Origin: a virus
Taxonomy: Duplodnaviria; Heunggongvirae; Uroviricota; Caudoviricetes
Virus record (IMG/VR): IMGVR_UViG_2526164646_000006
Direction: 5' to 3' (one strand)
Length of the DNA: 23,456 nucleotides
Each line of letters opens with the position of its first letter. Positions within the stretch are counted from its first letter, which is position 1. This document shows, piece by piece, positions 5,247-19,467 of this stretch. The position numbers were made by a program, and so were the translations under genes. The notes beneath the pieces are model-generated. The model ran no database searches. It was not told where the DNA came from and worked only from the letters and a program-made list of their open reading frames with translations.

Positions 5247-5395
5247 TTCCTGCGACACCACGGAAGGTTGATAGCTGATTTCATCGCTTTATTTGCTTCA
5301 AGCCACATTTTTGAATCACCAATAAATCTGGCTATTACTGCTTTGTTCTGTGCAGCACGAAGCATCTGATGATTTATGGCTATTTCATTGCGCAT
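5243..5395 (-). CDS. kil: Kil-like small protein (50 aa)
   Basis: Translation MRNEIAINHQMLRAAQNKAVIARFIGDSKMW... with position immediately downstream of cIII. Confidence 0.45.
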   Translation of the reverse strand: MRNEIAINHQMLRAAQNKAVIARFIGDSKMWLEANKAMKSAINLPWCRRK

Positions 5396-5511
5396 AATAA
5401 GACCTCAACTCTTTTCCATCCGTCACGTAATTTACGGGTGATTCGTTCAAGTAAAGATTCATTTAGTTGGAAGGCACCCATGCGAGCGCCTCCCGCGATT
5501 GCGTAAATCAT
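5380..5511 (-). CDS. cIII: CIII-like small protein (43 aa)
   Basis: Contains ESLLERITRKLRDGWKR, matching the lambda CIII core as recalled; AAGGAA RBS. Confidence 0.7.
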   Translation of the reverse strand: MIYAIAGGARMGAFQLNESLLERITRKLRDGWKRVEVLLCAMK

Positions 5512-5535
5512 GGGTGGTTCCTTATGTTGGTTTTA

Positions 5536-6504
5536 TTAGTAGGTTATTTTTGTTGCGAATACTTCGCCTTTTACGATGGCTGTTATGATATTTTTAGCAA
5601 CATCTTCTGATGCACCAACCTTGATAAGGTCAGCAAGTATTTTGTTATTTACTTCTTTCCGGTGAGCTTTATCCTTTGCTCTACGCTCTTCTTCTTCCTT
5701 GATTCTTTTTTCTTCTGCTATTCTGGCTTGCTCTTTTGCTTCAGCATCGCGACGGATTCGTTCAGCCTCCTCCTGTGCTTTTCTGCGTTCTGCTTCAATT
5801 GCTGCCTGCTTTTCTCTTTCAGCTCGTTCTGCTGCCTCTTTTGCTTCGCGCTGTGCTCGCTGCTCGGCTTCAATGCGTTCACGCTCTGCACGTTCCGCTG
5901 CGGCCTTAGCTTCTGCTTCTCGCCTTGCTGCTGCTTCAATTTCGGCTTTTGCCTTTGCTTCGGCTTCTGCTCTGGCTTTCTCTTCAGCTTCTCTTTTTAA
6001 GCGTTCTTCATGCTCTCGCTTTTCCTGCTCCGCTTTGAGTCTTGCCTCTTCTCTTTGGCGGTCAAATTCGCGATCCATCAAAATAGCTATTTCATGGTCA
6101 GACTCAATTTGCTTTGCGAGAGCTTCAGCTGCTGCCTTAGCTTCTTCTTCGGCTTTAATCCGCGCCTGTTCTTCCTCATAATCAGTAAGAGGCTGGCGCG
6201 CCTTGGCTTTCAGTTCATCAAGGCGATCGCGCACTGTCTTGCGGTTAGCATCAATTAGCTTTGGAATTTCCTTCAGTTCAGCAACAAGGTCTTTGCCAAG
6301 ACCATCGAGATATGTTTTCGTCTGCGCAACTTTATACGCCAGAGAAGCGATCTCCTTTCTGCCCTTTGCCGTTGTGATATCAGGCACAAAGGACATAACT
6401 TCACGTTCAACCTTTTGAAGGATTTCTTCAATCTGGTCGGCAGACTGAAATACAGTCATTGCATTTGCTTTTTCAATAACAACTAAATCTGTTACTTCAC
6501 TCAT
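5536..6504 (-). CDS. charged coiled-coil protein with E/A/K/R-rich low-complexity core (322 aa)
   Basis: ATG at 6504 with GGAGGA RBS; long AEAKAKAE/ERAERE repetitive segment. Confidence 0.6.
   Translation of the reverse strand: MSEVTDLVVIEKANAMTVFQSADQIEEILQKVEREVMSFVPDITTAKGRKEIASLAYKVAQTKTYLDGLGKDLVAELKEIPKLIDANRKTVRDRLDELKAKARQPLTDYEEEQARIKAEEEAKAAAEALAKQIESDHEIAILMDREFDRQREEARLKAEQEKREHEERLKREAEEKARAEAEAKAKAEIEAAARREAEAKAAAERAERERIEAEQRAQREAKEAAERAEREKQAAIEAERRKAQEEAERIRRDAEAKEQARIAEEKRIKEEEERRAKDKAHRKEVNNKILADLIKVGASEDVAKNIITAIVKGEVFATKITY
5607..6117 (-). repeat. imperfect short tandem repeats encoding the E/A/K/R-rich segment
   Basis: Recurrent gcttctgc/ttcggcttc-type units on the plus strand; produces low-complexity shadow ORFs in other frames. 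Confidence 0.5.
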
Positions 6505-6514
6505 ATATCCTCCG

Positions 6515-6545
6515 TCAAAAAAATTGCCCTCACACTGGAGGGCAA
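6515..6545 (-). terminator. intrinsic terminator just upstream of the coiled-coil gene
   Basis: Minus-strand 8-bp stem (6524-6531 / 6538-6545) with 6-nt loop followed by a U-run (plus-strand A-run 6515-6523). Confidence 0.5.
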
Positions 6546-6679
6546 AGAAGATTTCCAATAATCAGAACAAGTCGGCTCCTGTTTAGTTACGAGCGACATT
6601 GCTCCGTGTATTCACTCGTTGGAATGAATACACAGTGCAGTGTTTATTCTGTTGTTTATGCCAAAAATAAAGGCCACCG

Positions 6680-6958: not shown

Positions 6959-7285
6959 TCAAATAAGTGGTTTGCTGCCTAATTTCATTTTCTGGCGACC
7001 AACACAAGTCACACCCATTTCACTGCGTGGCTTGCTGTACCATGTGCGCTGATTCTTGCGCTCAATACGCTGCAGGTTGCTTTCAATCTGTTCGTGGTAT
7101 TCAGCCAGCACCGTAAGGTCTATCGGATTCAGTGCGCTTTCTACTCGTGATTTCGGTTTGCGATTCAGCGAGAGAATAGGGCGGTTAACTGGTTTTGCGC
7201 TTACCCCAACCAACAGGGGATTTGCTGCTTTCCATTGAGCCTGTTTCTCTGCGCGACGTTCGCGGCGGCGTGTTTGAGAGTCCAT
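6959..7285 (-). CDS. N: N transcription antitermination protein
   Basis: 108 aa; MDSQTRRRERRAEKQAQWKAANPLL... arginine-rich motif and near identity to lambda N as recalled; GAGGA RBS. Confidence 0.95.
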   Translation of the reverse strand: MDSQTRRRERRAEKQAQWKAANPLLVGVSAKPVNRPILSLNRKPKSRVESALNPIDLTVLAEYHEQIESNLQRIERKNQRTWYSKPRSEMGVTCVGRQKMKLGSKPLI

Positions 7286-7752: not shown

Positions 7753-7797
7753 CTCACCTTCATGGTGGTCAGTGCGTCCTGCTGATGGCTTAAAATT

Positions 7798-7865
7798 ACA
7801 AGAAAGATTGTATGTTGTAAACAAGAAATATTGTAAAAAGGGGCGTGAAAAACAAACTCCATTGT
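7798..7865. promoter_or_regulatory. OL operator cluster / pL region (434-type ACAA-N6-TTGT sites)
   Basis: ACAAGAAAGATTGT 7798-7811, ACAAGAAATATTGT 7821-7834, ACAAACTCCATTGT 7852-7865. Confidence 0.65.
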
Positions 7866-7914
7866 TTTTAAATGAAAAATAGTTTGTTTTTGGTTATCGA
7901 GATTGAGGTGGGGA

Positions 7915-9267
<1,353 letters not shown>

Positions 9268-9383: not shown

Positions 9384-9665
9384 ATGGGTACTATTGCAAC
9401 TAAAAGCAAGAAAGCGGCTCGCATCGAGTCAGCCTTGCTGAACAAACTGGCACTGATGGGGCAGAAGACATTCGCTCGAGCAATGGGGGTTCCTGAATAT
9501 CAGGTAAGCCGATGGAAGAATGGTTTCTTCTCGCAGGTAAGCATGATGCTTGCTGTTCTGGAATACGGAATCGAAGACGATGAAATGGCTGAATTGACTA
9601 AGCGGCTTGCCGATTACCTGACAAAAGAAAAAGCCCCGAAGAACGGCGAATTCTTCGAGGCCTAA
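9384..9665 (+). CDS. cII: CII transcriptional activator
   Basis: [11 protein letters not shown]...SRWK...[10 protein letters not shown] resembles lambda CII; AAGGA RBS. Confidence 0.9.
9621..9661 (-). terminator. possible oop-type antisense terminator at the cII 3' end
   Basis: Minus-strand 11-bp stem with one mismatch (9633-9643 / 9651-9661) followed by a U-run (plus A-run 9621-9632). Confidence 0.4.
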
Positions 9666-9699: not shown

Positions 9700-9846
9700 A
9701 TGACAAAACAACTCAGTCCTTACCAGGACAAAATTCACAAACACATACTACGTGATCGCTTCCTGTCCAGCTTCAAGCAGCATGGTCGATTCCGGGCTGA
9801 GTTGGAAAAAGTGAAGCTGATGCAGAAGGAGAAAGGTCATGAGTAA
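9700..9846 (+). CDS. small ORF (48 aa) overlapping the O start
   Basis: ATG at 9700 preceded by GGGAG; basic peptide. Confidence 0.4.
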
Positions 9847-10675
9847 TCTTGCAACCGTAACACATTTAAGGCCTTCACAACGGCCTGTGGAGCGTCGTGT
9901 GGCAGAAGTTGAAGATGGTTATACCCGTCTTGCAAATGCCCTGTATGAAGAGCTTATCGGCGCAGATTTAACGAAAAATCAGAGCAAGGTTGCCCACGCC
10001 ATATGCCGTAAAACATACGGCTACGGTAAAAAGATGGATCGCATCTCTGATAGTCAGTTAGCTCAAATTACCAGGCTGCCAAGACAGAAGGTAAACAAGG
10101 CCAAGAATGAGCTTATCGCGATGAAGGTTATCCTTCGCGAAGGCCAGCAAATCGGGCCTAACAAGAACATCGAGGAATGGCAAATAGAAGGGTGTCACTA
10201 CTCTGGTGATAATGTCACTGCATTGGTGACAAAAAGTGTCACCAAAACAGGGACACACAAAAGAAACTATTACAAAAGAAAAAGAAATAATAAAAACACT
10301 ATGTCCGAAAGTGTTCGGACGGAGTGTGAAAAATCACATGACCGTCACGAAGAAACCGACAAGGCATTCGAGGAAATATTCTGGTGTGCAGGCATGCGGA
10401 AAGCCGGGAAGAAAAACGCAGCTTCGGCATTCAGAACACAGTTCAGGGAATGGCGTAAAACTACCAGGGGTACGGCAAGCGAGTTTGCCACGATGCTGGC
10501 AGAAGACATCGCATGCAGGAATGGTAAGCAGTTCGGATTCGACAGGTTGTTACCATCGAGCTACCTGAACGGTCAACGCTGGAACGACGAGAAGCCAGAA
10601 ACTATTCAACCACAATCCAAACCATCATCCGCAATCACCGTATCGAAAACTGGCTACGTGTTTTTCGACAGGTGA
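9839..10675 (+). CDS. O: replication initiator, lambda O-like N-terminal domain with an unrelated C-terminus
   Basis: N-terminus [13 protein letters not shown]...[32 protein letters not shown] resembles lambda O; iteron-like repeats lie inside the gene. Confidence 0.85.
10190..10300. other. putative replication origin: TGTCAC-N6-GTGACA-type iterons plus AT-rich tract
   Basis: Three palindromic ~18-bp units at 10193-10256, AT-rich run 10257-10300, inverted repeat 10303-10320. Confidence 0.5.
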
Positions 10676-10782: not shown

Positions 10783-12309
10783 ATGACGCCAAGTGAACTT
10801 AGCGACCTGCTTTGGGCGCAGGTTGACAGGGTGGCTCCGCACCTGTTGCCAAACGGCAAGAAAGAGGGGCATGAGTGGGTTGCCGGTAACGTCAATGGTG
10901 ACAAGGGAAACAGCCTTAAGGTCAACCTTAGCGGCAAGAAAAAATGGGCTGATTTCGCTGAGGGAGACGGCGGTGACATGCTTGATTTGTGGATGGCATG
11001 TCGTGGAATTAACCTGCATCAGGCTATGCAGGAAGCGAAAGCATTTCTCGGTATCAAGGATGACGATCACCATTTCGATGCCAAACGTGAGAAAAAATTC
11101 TCCAGACCTGATCGCAAGAAAATCGCCCGCTACGTTACCAGAACAGAATCCCATCTTGAGTACCTGCAATCGCGTGGCATATCGCCAGAAGTCGTAAAGC
11201 GCTACGAGGTTGTCAGCGGCAAGGTGTGGAATGGAGAACGAGAACTTGATGCACTGGTGCTTCCGTACAAACGCGATGGTGAGTTGTTGCAGGTCAAGCG
11301 AATCAGCACTGAGCGCCCGGACGGGAAGAAAGTCATTATGGCAGAAGGTGATTGCGAACCTTGTCTGTTCGGATGGCAGGCTCTGGACGCTGGCGTGAGG
11401 GCGGTTGTACTTTGCGAAGGCGAAATTGATTGTATGAGCTATGCGCAATACGGCATCTCGGCGTTATCCGTGCCGTTTGGTGGAGGGAAAGGCGCTAAGC
11501 AACAGTGGATTGAGTTTGAGTACCACAACCTCGACAGGTTTGAGGAAATATTCATCTCGATGGACGTTGATGATGTTGGTCGTGAAGCCGCAAGGGAAAT
11601 CGCAAGCCGACTCGGTGAACATCGTTGCCGTCTTGTTACTCTGCCGTACAAAGACATCAACGAATGCCTGATGAACGGTGTTACCGAGGATGAAATCTGG
11701 CAGTACATCGGCACGGCATCCTACTTTGATCCTGAAGAACTCTACAGCGCGCGAGAGTTTTACCAGGACACTATCAACGCTTTCTACGGCAAGCAGCAGT
11801 ATCTGTTTAATCCACCGTGGGAATCTCTGGCAGATAAATTCCAGTTTCGTGAGGCCGAGTTGACGCTGGTCAATGGTGTGAACGGTCACGGAAAAACGGA
11901 GGTTGTCGGGCATATGGCACTTGAGGCAATGCGTCAGGGTGTGAAGACGTGCATCGCGTCACTTGAGCTGAAGCCTGGTATTCTCCTTAAGCGCCTTACC
12001 CGTCAGGCGACGTGCTGCAAGATGCCGCCAGTGCTGGAAATTGACTCTGCATTTAAATTTTATGACGAAAGACTTTGGGTGTTTGGCCTGACTGGAACGG
12101 CGAAAGCCGACAGGCTGATCGAAATATTCGACTACGCTCGCCGCCGATACGGCATCCAGTTATTCATCATCGACAGCCTGATGAAATGCGGCATAGGTGA
12201 CGATGACTATAACGGGCAGAAAGCATTTGTTGACTCGATTTGTGACTTCAAAAACAAACAAACTCCCACGTCATTCTCGTTACTCACTCCAGAAAAGGAG
12301 ATAGCGAAG
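10783..12309 (+). pseudogene. bifunctional primase-helicase (Toprim + SF4 RecA-fold helicase, T7 gp4-like), 5' portion; frameshifted near 12262-12268 and cut by IS911
   Basis: Toprim motifs CEGEID...DVDD; Walker A GVNGHGKT; Walker B LFIIDSL; downstream motif [11 protein letters not shown] is only readable in the -1 frame. Confidence 0.85.
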
Positions 12310-12350
12310 TGAAGTGGCACACTGAATTTGGCCACCTGAACAGAGGTGAT

Positions 12351-13549
<1,199 letters not shown>

Positions 13550-13557
13550 CCACTTCA

Positions 13558-13913
13558 AAGAAAAACCAACCGGGAAAATGGACGTAAAAGGCTCTGGAGC
13601 GATAACAGACCTGACAGACAACCTTTTTATCATCTGGCGTAACAAGGCTCGCGAGAGAGCGTTACAGAGAGTTCAGAGTGGTGAAAAGATGTCAGAGAAG
13701 GACGAACAGCTACTGGCATCTCCGGCATCTGTTTTGATGCTTGAAAAACAACGTAACGGCGAAGGTTGGGAAGGTGGTGTCCCGTTGTTCCTTGACGAGC
13801 AATCGCACCAGTTCCTGCAACTTGAATCAGGATCGCCTTATAGCTACATCGCCAATATGCCGAAATCGGAATATGACGAGGCGTGGCGACAGGAAAACGT
13901 GACGGAGTATTAA
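13558..13913 (+). pseudogene. primase-helicase 3' portion (helicase C-terminal motifs) downstream of IS911
   Basis: EKPTGKMDVKGSGAITDLTDNLFIIWRNK...LEKQRNGE aligns with the gp4/DnaB helicase H3/H4 region and joins the pre-insertion frame across the duplication. Confidence 0.8.
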
Positions 13914-14213: not shown

Positions 14214-14528
14214 ATGGACGAATCAAGAAAGCAGTTTGAAGAAAGTTGGTTGCGACGTGGGGGCGAATCTTCAGACCTTATCCGTTACCCTGAAAATCAC
14301 CATGAAATTGGCAGCGGTAATATTGGTGGTCAATACGTGATGGACGATGTTCAAGGCCACTGGCAAACGTGGCAGGCATCGAGAGCAGCTATTGAAATTG
14401 AGCTGCAAAAGCCAAAGAAAGGCCCACTTCCCGGTGATTATCACATTGGCTATGACTCAGGTGCAGAATCACAATACGAAAGCGATGTAGAGGCCATCCG
14501 CACTGCTGGAGTCAAAGTGAAGGAGTGA
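14214..14528 (+). CDS. hypothetical protein (104 aa)
   Basis: ATG with AGGA-type RBS; stop followed 2 nt later by the next start. Confidence 0.55.
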   Translation: MDESRKQFEESWLRRGGESSDLIRYPENHHEIGSGNIGGQYVMDDVQGHWQTWQASRAAIEIELQKPKKGPLPGDYHIGYDSGAESQYESDVEAIRTAGVKVKE

Positions 14529-14530
14529 GT

Positions 14531-14695
14531 ATGAGCGCATACGAAGAAATCATGTTAGCCCTGCGATTCTTTTTCGGTGTGGAAGAAGATGAAAACGTAA
14601 ATGAGATTATCGGGCAAGACCATGACCCGATAGGGACTATTGCAGCTGCACTTGACGATTACAGGAGCGTAAATGGTGAGGAAACTAACGTTTGA
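14531..14695 (+). CDS. small acidic protein (54 aa)
   Basis: ATG at 14531 with AAGGAG RBS; overlaps ninB start. Confidence 0.4.
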   Translation: MSAYEEIMLALRFFFGVEEDENVNEIIGQDHDPIGTIAAALDDYRSVNGEETNV

Positions 14696-15116
14696 ACTAA
14701 GAAGCCCCATCCATCAGCAGAACGCCATTCAAGCTATCCAGAAAATTCTTCCAGACCCAACCAAACCAATCGTAGTAACCATTCAGGAACGCAACCGCAG
14801 CTTAGACCAAAACAGGAAGCTATGGGCCTGCTTAGGTGACGTCTCTCGTCAGGTTGAATGGCATGGGCGTTGGCTGGATGCAGAAAGCTGGAAGTGTGTG
14901 TTTACCGCAGCATTAAAGCAGCAGGACGTTGTTCCTAACCTTGCCGGGAATGGCTTTGTGGTAATAGGCCAGTCAACCAGCAGGATGCGTGTAAGCGAAT
15001 TTGCGGAGCTATTAGAGCTTATACAGGCATTCGGTACAGAGCGTGGCGTTAAGTGGTCAGACGAAGCGCGACTGGCTCTGGAGTGGAAAGCGCGATGGGG
15101 AGACCGGGCAGCATGA
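14673..15116 (+). CDS. ninB: NinB (Orf-family recombination mediator)
   Basis: Translation ...[65 protein letters not shown]... close to lambda NinB as recalled. Confidence 0.95.
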
Positions 15117-15286
15117 TGCGATGTTATCGGTGCGGTGAATGCAAAGAAGATAACCGCTTCCGACCAAATCAACCTTACTGGAATCGATGGTGTCTCCGGT
15201 GTGAAAGAACACCAACAGGGGTGTTACCACTACCGCAGGAAAAGGAGGACGTGTGGCGAGACAGCGACGAAGTATCACCGACATAA
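15113..15286 (+). CDS. ninD: NinD-like zinc-ribbon protein (57 aa)
   Basis: [32 protein letters not shown]; ATGA overlap with ninB stop. Confidence 0.65.
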
Positions 15287-15429
15287 TCTGTGAAAACTGC
15301 AAATACCTTCCAACGAAACGCTCCAGAAATAAACGCAAGCCAATCCCAAAAGAATCTGACGTAAAAACCTTCAACTACACGGCTCACCTGTGGGATATCC
15401 GGTGGCTAAGACATCGTGCGAGGAAATGA
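15253..15429 (+). CDS. ninE: NinE-like protein (58 aa, GTG start)
   Basis: [52 protein letters not shown]; AGGAGG upstream. Confidence 0.55.
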
Positions 15430-15815
15430 CAATGGATTATTCACAGTTAAGTGATTTTGAAATTAACGTGGCGGTATTCGAAGCCATTCATAACGGATCA
15501 CCGGATTACAAAGAAGGTGAGAATGGCGCGATGGTGTTTATCTCATTTGAGGGAGACATTGTAAACGGAGACGCAGTTGAAGTAGAGGTTGAGCGCGGAT
15601 CCTTTAACCCATGCGCAAACCCAGCAGACGCATGGCCGATTATCACTGAAAACAACATCAGCATAATTTTAGACAATCCCTCAATGCCGTGCGCTACAGA
15701 CAACGCAAGGGACTTGTTTGATGATGCCGGACCGAATGTTGGTGTCGCATATGACAATCCACTCCGTGCCGCCATGATTGTCTTTCTCATGATGCAGGAC
15801 GCCAATAATGCTTAG
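15426..15815 (+). CDS. hypothetical nin-region protein (129 aa)
   Basis: ATG overlaps ninE stop (ATGA). Confidence 0.55.
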
Positions 15816-15987
15816 CCCATCCCAATCCCTTCAATACCAGAAAGAAAGCGTCGAGCGGGCTTTAACGTGCGCTAACTGCGGTCAGAAGCTGCATGTGCTG
15901 GAAGTTCACATGTGTGAGCACTGCTGCGCAGAACTGATGAGCGATCCGAATAGCTCAATGTACGAGGAAGAAGACGATGGTAATTAG
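15808..15987 (+). CDS. ninF: NinF-like Cys-rich small protein (59 aa)
   Basis: [46 protein letters not shown]. Confidence 0.6.
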   Translation: MLSPSQSLQYQKESVERALTCANCGQKLHVLEVHMCEHCCAELMSDPNSSMYEEEDDGN

Positions 15988-16369
15988 CCGATACGGACAA
16001 ATAACGTTTAAACATTTTCAAGACAATCCAACATGGGCTGCTGCGGCTGGATATGACTTTAATTATTTTGATTGTCTGTCAGTCGCATGTATTGCAACTA
16101 CCAATGTTGCTAACAACATAATCGATGAATTCTTGGATTTTCCAGACTATCAGGTCAGAGAGTTGCCTGCATTTTTTGTGAAAGTATCTGTTGCTACAGC
16201 TCTGTTATTTATTTTGTTATTCGCATATCCATTGCTTGCCGTATTTGTTTATGTGAGATGCAAACACTCACAAAAGAAATACAGCGGAGAGCATACCGAT
16301 ATTACCAGCCAAAATATGCGAGTGTGGTTGAGGAGATGCCAAGAGAAATGGGGGAGACGTCATGGCTAA
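15977..16369 (+). CDS. putative membrane protein in an AT-rich segment (130 aa)
   Basis: Hydrophobic segment LPAFFVKVSVATALLFILLFAYPLLAVFVYV; competing overlapping ORF at 16258-16491, so start and extent are uncertain. Confidence 0.35.
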   Translation: MVISRYGQITFKHFQDNPTWAAAAGYDFNYFDCLSVACIATTNVANNIIDEFLDFPDYQVRELPAFFVKVSVATALLFILLFAYPLLAVFVYVRCKHSQKKYSGEHTDITSQNMRVWLRRCQEKWGRRHG

Positions 16370-16652
16370 CCTACGCAAAGAAGCGCGCGGAAGAGAATGC
16401 CAGGTACGTATTTACGGCGTATGCAATGGAAATCCTGAAACTACAGTTCTGGCACATTACCGGATGGCTGGAATTTGCGGAACTGGAATGAAGCCTGACG
16501 ACCTGATCGGGGCATGGGCTTGTAGCGCGTGTCACGATGAAATCGACCGACGCACCCATAATCTCGACAACAAAGACGCCAGACTTTACCACCTCGAAGG
16601 CGTGATCAGGACGCAGGCGATACTGCTGAAGGAGGGAAAGATTAAGCCATGA
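16362..16652 (+). CDS. YbcO-like (DUF1364) putative nuclease
   Basis: MANLRKEARGRECQVRIYGVCNGNPETTVLAHYR...WACSACHDEIDRR; GGGGAGA RBS. Confidence 0.7.
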   Translation: MANLRKEARGRECQVRIYGVCNGNPETTVLAHYRMAGICGTGMKPDDLIGAWACSACHDEIDRRTHNLDNKDARLYHLEGVIRTQAILLKEGKIKP

Positions 16653-17011
16653 ACGAATATCAGTTTGTGCTTCCATACCCGCCGTCGGTGAACACCTACT
16701 GGCGAAGACGGGGAAGCCAATACTACATCAGCGATAAAGGCCAGAAATACCGAAAAGACGTTCAGAAAATCATCCGCCAACTCAAGTTAGACATTTTCAC
16801 CAAATCACGACTCCGCATCAAAGTAATCGCAGACGTTCCAGACTCCCGCCGCCGCGACCTCGATAACATCCTGAAAGGTTTACTCGACTCACTTATCCAC
16901 GCCGGATTTGCGGAAGACGACGAGCAATTCGATGACATTCGCGTAATTCGTGGTGTGAAAGTACCAGGCGGAAGGCTTGGAATAAAAATCACCGAACTGG
17001 AGAACGCATGA
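16649..17011 (+). CDS. rusA: RusA Holliday-junction resolvase
   Basis: LPYPPSVNTYW...DRRRRDLDNILK...IKITELE matches RusA as recalled. Confidence 0.9.
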   Translation: MNEYQFVLPYPPSVNTYWRRRGSQYYISDKGQKYRKDVQKIIRQLKLDIFTKSRLRIKVIADVPDSRRRDLDNILKGLLDSLIHAGFAEDDEQFDDIRVIRGVKVPGGRLGIKITELENA

Positions 17012-17196
17012 ACGCCACAATTCAAACGATACCAGAGCTTCTTATCCAGACACGAGGAAATCAGACCGAAGTGGCGAGGATGCTTTCCTGCGCAAGAGGA
17101 ACAGTGCTCAAGTACAACCGAGACAGCAAAGGCGAGCGTCACGTAATAGTTAACGGCGTCCTGATGGTCAAACAGGGCAAAAGGGGAAGGCCATGA
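17008..17196 (+). CDS. ninH: NinH-like small DNA-binding protein
   Basis: GNQTEVARMLSCARGTVLKY HTH-like segment. Confidence 0.6.
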   Translation: MNATIQTIPELLIQTRGNQTEVARMLSCARGTVLKYNRDSKGERHVIVNGVLMVKQGKRGRP

Positions 17197-17816
17197 GACT
17201 CGAAAGCGTAGCTAAATTTCATTCGCCAAAAAGCCCGATGATGAGCGACTCACCACGGGCCACGGCTTCTGACTCTCTTTCCGGTACTGATGTGATGGCT
17301 GCTATGGGGATGGCGCAATCACAAGCCGGATTCGGAATGGCTGCATTCTGCGGTAAGCATGAACTCAGCCAGAACGACAAACAAAAGGCTATCAACTATC
17401 TGATGCAATTTGCACACAAAGTATCGGGGAAATACCGTGGTGTGGCAAAGCTCGAAGGAAATACTAAGGCAAAGGTACTGCAAGTGCTCGCAACATTCGC
17501 TTATGCGGATTATTGCCGTAGTGCCGCGACGCCGGGCGCAAGATGCAGAGATTGCCACGGTACAGGCCGTGCGGTTGATATAGCCAAAACAGAGCAGTGG
17601 GGGAGAGTTGTTGAGAAAGAGTGCGGAAGATGCAAAGGTGTCGGCTATTCAAGAATGCCAGCAAGCGCTGCATATCGCGCTGTAACGATGCTAATCCCAA
17701 ACCTTACCCAACCCACCTGGTCACGCACTGTTAAGCCGCTGTATGACGCTCTGGTGGTGCAATGCCACAAAGAAGAGTCAATCGCAGACAACATTTTGAA
17801 TGCGGTCACACGTTAG
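17193..17816 (+). CDS. Q: Q late antiterminator, lambda type
   Basis: 207-aa translation beginning MRLESVAKFHSPKSPMMSDSPRATASDSLSGTDVMAAMGMAQSQAG... essentially as recalled for lambda Q. Confidence 0.95.
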   Translation: MRLESVAKFHSPKSPMMSDSPRATASDSLSGTDVMAAMGMAQSQAGFGMAAFCGKHELSQNDKQKAINYLMQFAHKVSGKYRGVAKLEGNTKAKVLQVLATFAYADYCRSAATPGARCRDCHGTGRAVDIAKTEQWGRVVEKECGRCKGVGYSRMPASAAYRAVTMLIPNLTQPTWSRTVKPLYDALVVQCHKEESIADNILNAVTR

Positions 17817-17858
17817 CAGCATGATTGCCACGGATGGCAACATATTAACGGCATGATA

Positions 17859-17888
17859 TTGACTTTTTGAATAAAGTTGGGTAAATTT
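17859..17888 (+). promoter_or_regulatory. pR' late promoter with overlapping qut region
   Basis: TTGACT at 17859-17864, 17-nt spacer, TAAATT at 17882-17887. Confidence 0.8.
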
Positions 17889-17920
17889 GACTCAACGATG
17901 GATAAATGCACTCGTTAAAT

Positions 17921-17957
17921 AAAGCCCTGAGTTAATAGCTCGGGGCTTTTTGCGTTT
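17921..17957 (+). terminator. intrinsic terminator about 60 nt downstream of pR' (tR'-like)
   Basis: 11-bp stem with one G-U pair (17921-17931 / 17939-17949), 7-nt loop, then TTTTTGCGTTTT. Confidence 0.7.
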
Positions 17958-18249
17958 TAAGCACGACCTTTCTGAAAGCGCATCAAACCAAATACCAGAC
18001 AGACCAAAATAATCACCTTATCCGCTGTGGCTACGGTGCGGTGTGCTTTGCATAAAAGAAAACCAGCTCAATGGCTGGCTTCGTGAAAGCGGGTGGCAAG
18101 AGGTTGCGCTAACAACCTGATGCCGTTTTGCCCGTGCATATCGGTCACGAACAAATCTGATTACTAAACACAGTAGCCTGGATTTGTTCTATCAGTAATC
18201 GACCTTATTCCTAATTAAATAGAGCAAATCCCCTTATTGGGGGTAAGAC

Positions 18250-18573
18250 ATGAAGATGCCAGAAAAACATGACCTGTTAGCCGCCATTCTCGCGGCAAAG
18301 GAACAAGGCATCGGGGCAATCCTTGCGTTTGCAATGGCGTACCTTCGCGGCAGATATAATGGCGGTGCGTTTACAAAAACAGTAATCGACGCAACGATGT
18401 GCGCCATTATCGCCTGGTTCATTCGTGACCTTCTCGACTTCGCCGGACTAAGTAGCAATCTCGCTTATATAACGAGCGTGTTCATCGGCTACATCGGTAC
18501 TGACTCGATTGGTTCGCTTATCAAACGCTTCGCTGCTAAAAAAGCCGGAGTAGAAGATGGTGGAAATCAATAA
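18250..18573 (+). CDS. S: holin S with dual-start motif
   Basis: [34 protein letters not shown]...; Met1 and Met3 starts. Confidence 0.95.
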
Positions 18574-19033
18574 TCAACGTAAGGCGTTCCTCGATATGCT
18601 GGCGTGGTCGGAGGGAACTGATAACGGACGTCAGAAAACCAGAAATCATGGTTATGACGTCATTGTTGGCGGAGAGCTATTCACTGATTACTCCGATCAC
18701 CCTCGCAAACTTGTCACGCTAAACCCCAAACTCAAATCAACAGCAGCCGGACGTTACCAGCTTCTTTCCCGTTGGTGGGATGCCTATCGTAAGCAGCTTG
18801 GCCTGAAAGACTTCTCTCCGAAAAGCCAGGACGCTGTGGCACTGCAACAGATTAAGGAACGTGGCGCTTTACCGATGATTGATCGCGGTGATATCCGTCA
18901 GGCAATCGACCGTTGCAGCAATATCTGGGCTTCACTGCCGGGCGCTGGTTATGGTCAGTTCGAGCATAAGGCTGACAACCTGATTGCAAAATTCAAAGAA
19001 GCTGGCGGAACGGTCAGAGAGATTGAGGTATGA
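18557..19033 (+). CDS. R: endolysin R (lytic transglycosylase)
   Basis: [49 protein letters not shown]... Confidence 0.95.
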
Positions 19034-19467
19034 GCAGAGTCACCGAGATTATCTCCGCTCTGGTTATCTGCATCATCGTCTGCCTGTCATGGGCTGTTAA
19101 TCATTACCGTGATAATGCAATCGCCTACAAAGAGCAGCGCGATAAAGCCACATCCATCATCGCTGATATGCAGAAGCGTCAACGTGATGTAGCTGAACTC
19201 GATGCCAGATACACAAAGGAGCTTGCTGATGCTAACGCGACTATCGAAAGTCTCCGTACTGATGTCTCTGCTGGTCGTAAGCGCTTGCAAATCGCCGCCA
19301 CCTGTGCAAAGTCAACGACCGGAGCCAGCGGCATGGGCGATGGAGAAAGCCCAAGACTTACAGCAGATGCTGAACTCAATTATTACCGTCTCCGAAGTGG
19401 AATCGACAGGATAACCGCGCAGGTTAACTACCTGCAGGAATACATCAGGACGCAATGCCTTCGATGA
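19030..19467 (+). CDS. Rz: Rz i-spanin
   Basis: N-terminal membrane helix then coiled-coil; contains embedded Rz1. Confidence 0.9.
19229..19414 (+). CDS. Rz1: Rz1 o-spanin lipoprotein, embedded in Rz in the +1 frame
   Basis: AAGGAG RBS; lipobox VSAC; proline-rich mature region. Confidence 0.85.

Follow-up and report, generated by a model that had tools for sequence, protein, structure and literature searches.

The nin region of lambdoid phages is non-essential; it belongs to the delayed-early, N-antiterminated section of the pR transcript and consists of interlinked genes (PMC10695390, citing Kroger & Hobom 1982). The gene that is the subject of this work, an open reading frame (ORF) of 130 codons between ninF and ybcO, fits both such an interlinked region and the mosaicism at gene boundaries that lambdoid phages display. 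It is located in a 23,456-nt stretch of viral DNA (IMG/VR record IMGVR_UViG_2526164646_000006; the window, in what follows, is this whole stretch), which belongs to a P22-like or lambdoid prophage with Sf101 and IME10 as the closest overall phage matches. Several described systems can be set beside it. The alternative cassettes found between ninF and ninG or ybcO (Roi/ANT, HNH-NUMOD4, phrog_1258, phrog_3973 and phrog_3379) share with the gene its slot, its ATG, its ATGGCTAA border and its optional character, whereas among the seven sampled states of the slot (six cassettes and the empty slot), only the 130-codon gene encodes a membrane protein, and its G+C content at third codon positions (GC3) is the lowest. 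Morons in the sense of Juhala and Hendrix, such as HK97 gp15 and lambda bor and lom, are likewise extra genes of atypical composition between adjacent genes, but the present gene differs from them in having no detected promoter or terminator of its own and in overlapping its neighbors within what would be an early lytic operon. T4 Imm and Sp, HK97 gp15, and P22 SieA are small inner-membrane superinfection-exclusion proteins, those of T4 being produced early in the lytic cycle; the 130-residue protein is of the same size class and is predicted to share their anchoring in the inner membrane, which makes them a working analogy for its possible function, but no sequence, profile or fold similarity to any annotated family was found for it. 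Holins (lambda S, Phage_holin_3_1) resemble it in being small and in combining a hydrophobic helix with a charged C-terminal tail, although a single transmembrane (TM) helix is predicted here, compared to two or three in class I and class II holins, and the ORF does not lie beside the endolysin gene. The overall best explanation, which we regard as probable, is that the gene encodes an inner-membrane protein, is carried as a swappable cassette of the nin region, and serves the lytic cycle.

The borders of the cassette were defined by comparing the window with five related loci (L005, L006, L007, L008 and L001; compared loci are numbered with an L). In phages that match the window at approximately 97% in ninF and ybcO, the similarity ends right after the ATG at 15977 and resumes exactly at ATGGCTAA. 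This ATG lies 11 nt inside ninF (GAC GAT GGT AAT TAG), the 3' end of which (...GAGGAAGAAGACGATG) is conserved in all related phages as far as the shared start codon, while the ATGGCTAA 8-mer at the other border opens both ybcO (L008) and ninG (L007); in some prophages, the same 393-nt cassette is followed by ninG in place of ybcO. In each case, the Shine-Dalgarno sequence of the next gene comes with the cassette itself; that of ybcO (GGGGGAG) is located in the 3' end of the 130-codon ORF. An insertion of the insertion sequence or transposon type was considered and rejected: no direct or inverted repeats were found at the borders of the ORF, and these borders are the start codons common to all cassettes.

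A census of the slot, in which IMG/VR was scanned for the conserved 3' end of ninF and the ORF at the shared ATG was classified, yielded 109 usable contigs. In 33 of them, NinG follows directly and the slot is empty; the remaining occupants are a Roi/ANT-type protein (31 contigs), an 89-residue protein of phrog_1258 (17), a 70-residue protein of phrog_3973 (12), the 130-residue membrane protein (6), a 169-residue HNH-NUMOD4 homing endonuclease (6; e.g., L125 and L215) and a 72-residue protein of phrog_3379 (4). By these comparisons, interchangeable cassettes with gene-exact borders number at least six, this gene among them. The preliminary description, made from the window alone, had taken the segment for an acquired insert and had named the ninF-ybcO junction of related prophages as the place to look; the relatives do not share one conserved sequence at this junction, most of them carrying another ORF or none after ninF, and the acquired, optional character of the insert is thereby borne out. 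Homologues sharing 48-58% identity are also found in this slot, with an equivalent overlap of 10-11 nt, and remoter ones have ninE on one side and ninF or ninG on the other, which suggests that the family has long been an optional inhabitant of nin regions. Turnover of the slot may owe something to homing endonucleases.

Two further arrangements were observed at or near the slot. In Klebsiella phage phiKp_30 (L001, 4136-4800), the same cassette is present with 97% identity, next to a ninF that is present but unannotated there; after the cassette, 29 nt of the ybcO 5' end are fused to a ninF-3'-like GAGGAAGACGATG, followed by a roi-like start and, later, by an intact ybcO, a remnant fusion indicating that cassettes can be stacked via microhomology at their linkers. 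In P1-like phages (L003, L056-L088), a homologue of the 89-residue phrog_1258 protein is the immediate upstream neighbor of the family to which the 130-residue protein belongs, phrog_2638, and judging from this arrangement, the genes of the two families seem to circulate in one gene pool.

The coding status of the segment had been regarded as uncertain, since a second ORF of 77 codons on the same strand (Table 1) competes for its 3' part. This overlapping ORF exists; the doubt is nevertheless resolved in favor of the 130-codon frame. Among 16 distinct near-identical alleles (96-100% identity) drawn from public collections, 26 sites vary, of which 5, 3, and 18 fall at codon positions 1, 2, and 3, respectively, of the 130-codon frame, and the ratio of nonsynonymous to synonymous substitution rates (dN/dS) is 0.26 against the 97% alleles and 0.08-0.16 between diverged homologues from the same slot. 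This codon-position bias, together with a dN/dS well below 1, settles the coding question. Homologues with 50-58% identity are conserved from end to end, down to the 35 C-terminal residues overlapped by the competing ORF, and the 130-codon ORF is annotated as a coding sequence in 37 E. coli genomes. It is, on the evidence of these substitution patterns, a real gene under selection. The competing ORF was rejected as a gene on three counts: (i) all 12 variable sites in the overlap alter its amino acid; (ii) some alleles have a stop at its codon 7; and (iii) its 3' 130 nt lie within the well-supported ybcO frame. By the same kind of evidence, it is an alternative-frame artefact. It matches phrog_14831 (expectation value [E], 1e-41) over residues 23-77; the first 13 of these fall in the 3' end of the 130-codon sequence, and the bulk lies within ybcO in a different frame. 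phrog_14831 was probably built from mis-called alternative-frame ORFs. It is extremely improbable that the segment is non-coding filler or that its true product is the 77-residue protein. Such a reading could point to the absence of a Pfam domain from the 130-residue protein and to the phrog_14831 match, but it is contradicted by the third-position bias and low dN/dS of the longer frame, by distant protein homologues in at least five phage types, and by the replacements and the stop codon that are all the shorter frame, mostly inside ybcO, has collected.

Nonsense codons were seen in the C-terminal tail of three near-identical prophage copies, at codon 112 in L018 and L019 and at codon 120 in L031. 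The truncations leave the N-terminal motif and the TM helix intact and match distant members of the family that are naturally devoid of the C-terminal helix.

The 130-residue protein is a plain member of phrog_2638, a family without assigned function, structure, or Pfam entry. The match covers the full length of the profile (E, 3.1e-55; 186.7 bits; residues 9-127 against profile positions 2-120 of 120). It is 100% identical to the protein copy at locus L007, which RefSeq lists as WP_000237096.1 ("hypothetical protein"), and the exact sequence is found on more than 1000 public contigs of E. coli, including sequence type 131 (ST131), and Salmonella, always under the label "hypothetical protein"; among 5426 complete E. 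coli genomes, 37 carry the gene. It is, in other words, already known in databases as a RefSeq hypothetical protein and a PHROG of no assigned function. The family comprises 13 clusters at 90% identity, and 43 representatives at 50% identity are found among 1.84 billion proteins; the latter are 99-134 residues long, mostly 99-131, except for a few fragments (down to 58 residues) and one repetitive protein of 1859 residues. Searches by tblastn recovered members with 32-40% identity in a Yersinia siphophage, the P1-like phages SJ46 and RCS47, Proteus Gorganvirus phages, and a Morganella phage, homologues overall ranging from 32 to 58% identity across lambdoid, P1-like, Yersinia, and Proteus phages, and genome matches included Buttiauxella, Dryocola, Pseudocitrobacter, Xenorhabdus, and Morganella. 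As recovered by these searches, the family is small, phage-restricted, and spread across Enterobacterales phages. The member in Yersinia phage vB_YenS-P840 (L002, 3998-4357) is labelled "conotoxin," which is almost certainly an annotation artefact.

Comparisons aimed at function returned little. Scans of the protein and three distant relatives against Pfam, NCBIfam, and PADLOC gave sub-threshold noise only (Kinocilin, ATP synthase c, and LapA) and no match to a superinfection-exclusion or defence family, a profile search of PDB sequences returned a single chance match (E, 0.8), fold comparison gave no meaningful match, and an Rfam scan of the window gave no RNA family. The literature search found no paper naming WP_000237096 and none describing a membrane protein in this slot. 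Since no gene neighbor is common to all contexts of the family, guilt by association suggested no function either.

The base composition of the gene sets it apart from its surroundings, as had been proposed from the outset, and the sliding-window and third-position analyses agree. The ORF has a G+C content of 0.394 and a GC3 of 0.359, compared to GC3 values of 0.49-0.58 in ninB, ninX, ninF, ybcO, rusA, ninH, and Q, and the G+C content drops to 0.375 at 16000-16300 from approximately 0.50 on either flank. Segments of 393 nt with a G+C content as low as that of the ORF make up 1.0% of the window (z = -2.5), the ORF representing its second-deepest trough. Homologues from the same slot (48-58% identity) have GC3 values of 0.42-0.60, so the low G+C content belongs to this allele and not to the protein family. 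In Proteus and Xenorhabdus relatives, the gene has a G+C content of 0.30-0.35. The compositional data point to import of this allele from a lower-G+C phage pool.

The suggestion that the gene is a moron stands in part. It is horizontally exchanged and optional between otherwise adjacent genes, as illustrated by the contigs in which NinF and NinG are direct neighbors, and its base composition is deviant. The autonomous unit that is characteristic of a moron was, on the other hand, not recovered: the gene shares 11 nt with ninF and 8 nt with ybcO, has no flanking repeats, and in a consensus scan, which weak or non-sigma-70 promoters may escape, showed no flanking sigma-70-like promoter or intrinsic terminator on its strand. 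Counts of promoter-like and terminator-like sites in 14500-18300 equal the shuffle expectation, and the first terminator-like hairpin downstream, at 17921, comes after Q. The overlap with both neighbors, combined with the lack of a recognizable promoter and terminator of its own, argues that the gene is a link in a translationally coupled delayed-early nin operon. Going by its sequence and borders, it is a horizontally exchanged accessory cassette, i.e., an ordinary lambdoid mosaic gene and not a strict moron.

A classical moron of the lysogenic-conversion type would be an acquired membrane-protein gene transcribed independently from the repressed prophage, for example, for superinfection exclusion in the manner of HK97 gp15 or P22 SieA. 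This reading, which we consider unlikely, would accommodate the optional position, the deviant G+C content and GC3, the small membrane protein, and the frequency of the exact protein in E. coli and Salmonella prophages. It is opposed by the two overlaps, which leave no space for a promoter or terminator, by the scan, which found neither, by a position deep in the delayed-early lytic operon, by the other occupants of the slot (Roi and HNH endonuclease), which are not conversion genes, and by homologues that belong to replication modules in Proteus Gorganvirus phages, described as lytic, and to other early regions. Specifically, the relative in Yersinia phage P840 lies between the genes for exodeoxyribonuclease VIII and Dam, a Proteus Gorganvirus relative lies between the exonuclease and primase genes, and the P1-like relatives lie inside a block of early-type genes without assigned function. 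The location of relatives among early DNA-metabolism genes favors a role in the lytic cycle over lysogenic conversion.

The genes of DNA metabolism that accompany the family (those for NinB, NinG, RusA, and YbcO; exodeoxyribonuclease VIII and Dam; helicase, exonuclease, and primase) can also be read in another way, namely, that the protein is a membrane tether for phage replication or recombination resembling phi29 p16.7, whose basic tail would anchor DNA or the Nin recombination proteins. The tail, predicted to be cytoplasmic, is indeed basic and rich in Arg and Trp. Even so, this role is very unlikely: distant members lack the C-terminal helix entirely, domain scans detected no DNA-binding domain, and a mosaic early-region neighborhood in which no single neighbor is conserved across contexts is weak evidence.

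The architecture of the protein was assessed from the conservation profile of an alignment of 41 family members and from an AlphaFold2 model based on an 11-sequence alignment. The strongly hydrophobic segment that had been noticed between the NinF-like and YbcO-like genes, both of which are confirmed by Pfam, was recovered as a predicted TM helix (Table 1). The most conserved part of the protein is an N-terminal motif with the consensus xTFKHFxDxPxWAxAAGYDFNxxDCxS, in which P18 and G25 are invariant and F14, A21, Y26, and D32 are kept in at least 90% of the 41 members; D-x-x-V-R-E-L-P is a further conserved motif. The predicted amphipathic helix that follows is marginally hydrophobic here (Kyte-Doolittle value, 1.19) and reaches 1.8-1.9 in some distant relatives. 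Charge at positions 70-93, within the TM helix, is nearly nil in the 41 members, with two columns containing one acidic residue each and one column containing one basic residue. The intramembrane motif has the family consensus YPFxFWxxG...Y and reads AYPLLAVFVY in this protein; P81 is kept in 33 of 41 members, G or A at position 88 in 37 of 41, and Y92 in 25 of 40. The conservation of this Pro/Gly/aromatic motif suggests specific helix-helix packing or oligomerisation. In the C-terminal helix, which distant members do not have, all sequences of the close subfamily share N113 and W117. The AlphaFold2 model (predicted local distance difference test score, 85; predicted template modelling score, 0.70) contains helices at residues 30-53, 60-101, and 108-128.

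Lys and Arg residues number 181 in the 15 residues after the TM helix and 84 in the 15 residues before it (41 members), the N-terminal flank being net acidic; by the positive-inside rule, the tail is predicted to be cytoplasmic. With a hydrophobic helix long enough to span the bilayer and this charge bias, the protein is predicted to be integral to the inner membrane. Residues W20, F28, and N29 co-occur with N113 and W117 (18 versus 19 sequences, with 4 exceptions), which may hint at an N terminus and a tail that share one side of the membrane; the pattern is confounded by phylogeny, and we do not rely on it.

An outline consisting of a small size, a hydrophobic helix, and then a highly basic C-terminal tail, in combination with a TM motif suggestive of helix-helix packing or oligomerisation, is reminiscent of holins, antiholins, and toxins. 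The protein could thus be imagined to permeabilise or depolarise the inner membrane, either as an accessory regulator of lysis timing or as a killer of the abortive-infection type. We judge this quite unlikely, since the ORF lies outside the lysis cassette, approximately 1.9 kb upstream of it and before Q, and the phage has its own lambda-S-type holin; furthermore, no antitoxin-like adjacent partner is conserved across contexts, the PADLOC scan gave no match, and conservation peaks in the soluble N-terminal motif and not in the TM helix.

The explanation that we prefer, an inner-membrane protein encoded by a swappable nin cassette and used in the lytic cycle, can be put as a series of steps: (i) the gene would be transcribed together with the nin genes on the N-antiterminated delayed-early pR transcript; (ii) its translation would be coupled to that of ninF and ybcO; (iii) it would accordingly be timed as a lytic-cycle gene rather than as a conversion gene expressed from the prophage; (iv) the protein would anchor in the inner membrane early in infection; (v) its conserved N-terminal and intramembrane motifs may bind a component of the host envelope that is conserved across Enterobacterales; and (vi) the envelope would, in turn, be remodelled or closed, so that, e.g., superinfecting DNA is excluded or a host membrane process is blocked. 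The last steps amount to a tentative assignment, by analogy with proteins such as T4 Imm and Sp, to early membrane-anchored effectors acting on the host envelope, of either the superinfection-exclusion or the host-takeover type. Across genera, the strongest conservation is found in the N-terminal motif and the TM helix, which argues for a conserved host target in the inner membrane and not for a mere anchor. It is possible, if still speculative, that phrog_2638, rare but distributed widely among phages of Enterobacterales and nearly invariant in its N-terminal and YPFxFWxxG motifs, represents an unrecognised class of early phage effector that binds a conserved inner-membrane protein of the host.

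Several observations weigh against the preferred explanation: (i) a weak or non-sigma-70 promoter next to the gene may have escaped the consensus scan; (ii) given the nonsense codons in three copies, constraint on the gene cannot be strong in all prophages; (iii) the predicted topology has two readings, in one of which a single TM helix with a cytoplasmic C terminus implies export of the 64-residue N-terminal domain without a signal peptide, while in the other, the modelled helix at residues 30-53 also dips into or crosses the membrane, placing both termini inside; and (iv) in this prophage, a copy of IS911 sits between pR and the nin genes and may disturb delayed-early transcription of the nin region in this copy.

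The features of the window are compiled in Table 1. The IS911 copy (12309-13557) has 99.8% identity to copies on Shigella virulence plasmids and splits the toprim primase/helicase gene. The prophage is probably replication-defective. Two further regions of low G+C content were noticed. The lowest value of the whole window (0.356) is found at 7790-8391, where a 158-codon ORF (7915-8391, minus strand) lies directly downstream of cI on the same strand, in the position that rexAB holds in lambda; its product matches phrog_2651 (no function assigned) and has no Pfam match. For a moron or defence gene expressed from the prophage, this ORF is a stronger candidate than the one in the nin region. A trough of 0.389 at 5264-6558 overlaps the 3' end of a 340-codon ORF (5536-6558, minus strand), located to the left of N and on its strand, in the expected place of the pL operon; its product has no Pfam match and falls in phrog_1376 and phrog_21365 (no function assigned).

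Table 1. Positions of the 130-codon gene, its predicted protein segments, and other features of the window
Feature	Positions	Strand	Remarks
N	6959-7285	-	
cI	8316-8948	-	
cII	9384-9665		
O	9839-10675		
Toprim primase/helicase gene, N-terminal part	10783-12312		Gene lies between O and the nin genes
Toprim primase/helicase gene, C-terminal part	13479-13913		
nin genes			Ahead of Q
ninF	15808-15987	+	Pfam NinF PF05810, E 1.2e-10; phrog_672, E 5e-37
Left cassette junction	15964-15987	+	Shine-Dalgarno-like GAGGAAG; shared ATG at 15977; ninF stop TAG at 15985-15987
Coding sequence of the 130-residue membrane protein	15977-16369	+	phrog_2638; between ninF and ybcO
Most conserved part, residues 9-35	16001-16081	+	ITFKHFQDNPTWAAAAGYDFNYFDCLS
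Predicted amphipathic helix, residues 30-53	16064-16135	+	AlphaFold2, hydropathy
Predicted TM helix, residues 65-93	16169-16255	+	Kyte-Doolittle 19-residue maximum 2.61
Basic C-terminal tail, residues 94-130	16256-16366	+	10 Lys/Arg; predicted helix at residues 108-128
Competing 77-codon ORF	16258-16491	+	Overlaps end of the 130-codon sequence and start of ybcO
Right cassette junction	16362-16369	+	ATGGCTAA; last 8 nt of the ORF, including its stop, are the start of ybcO
ybcO (DUF1364, putative nuclease)	16362-16652	+	Pfam YbcO PF07102, E 1.8e-44
rusA, ninH, Q			In this order downstream of ybcO
Q	17193-17816		
Lambda-S-type holin	18250-18573		Phage_holin_3_1, E 2.4e-30; followed by endolysin and spanin ORFs, with terminase genes further on
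Lysis cassette	18250-19467		Own Phage_holin_3_1

To conclude, the gene is an instance of the mosaicism at gene boundaries for which the lambdoid nin region is well known, and as it stands, the finding matters little. It is of modest value in providing a clean multi-allelic cassette slot, with at least six occupants and exact start-codon borders, and in flagging a small, strongly conserved, phage-only membrane-protein family that resides in common E. coli (including ST131) and Salmonella prophages and is simple to test. If phrog_2638 did turn out to be a class of early effectors directed at a host inner-membrane protein, it would represent a new mechanism by which temperate and virulent phages alike take over the envelope or exclude superinfecting phages.

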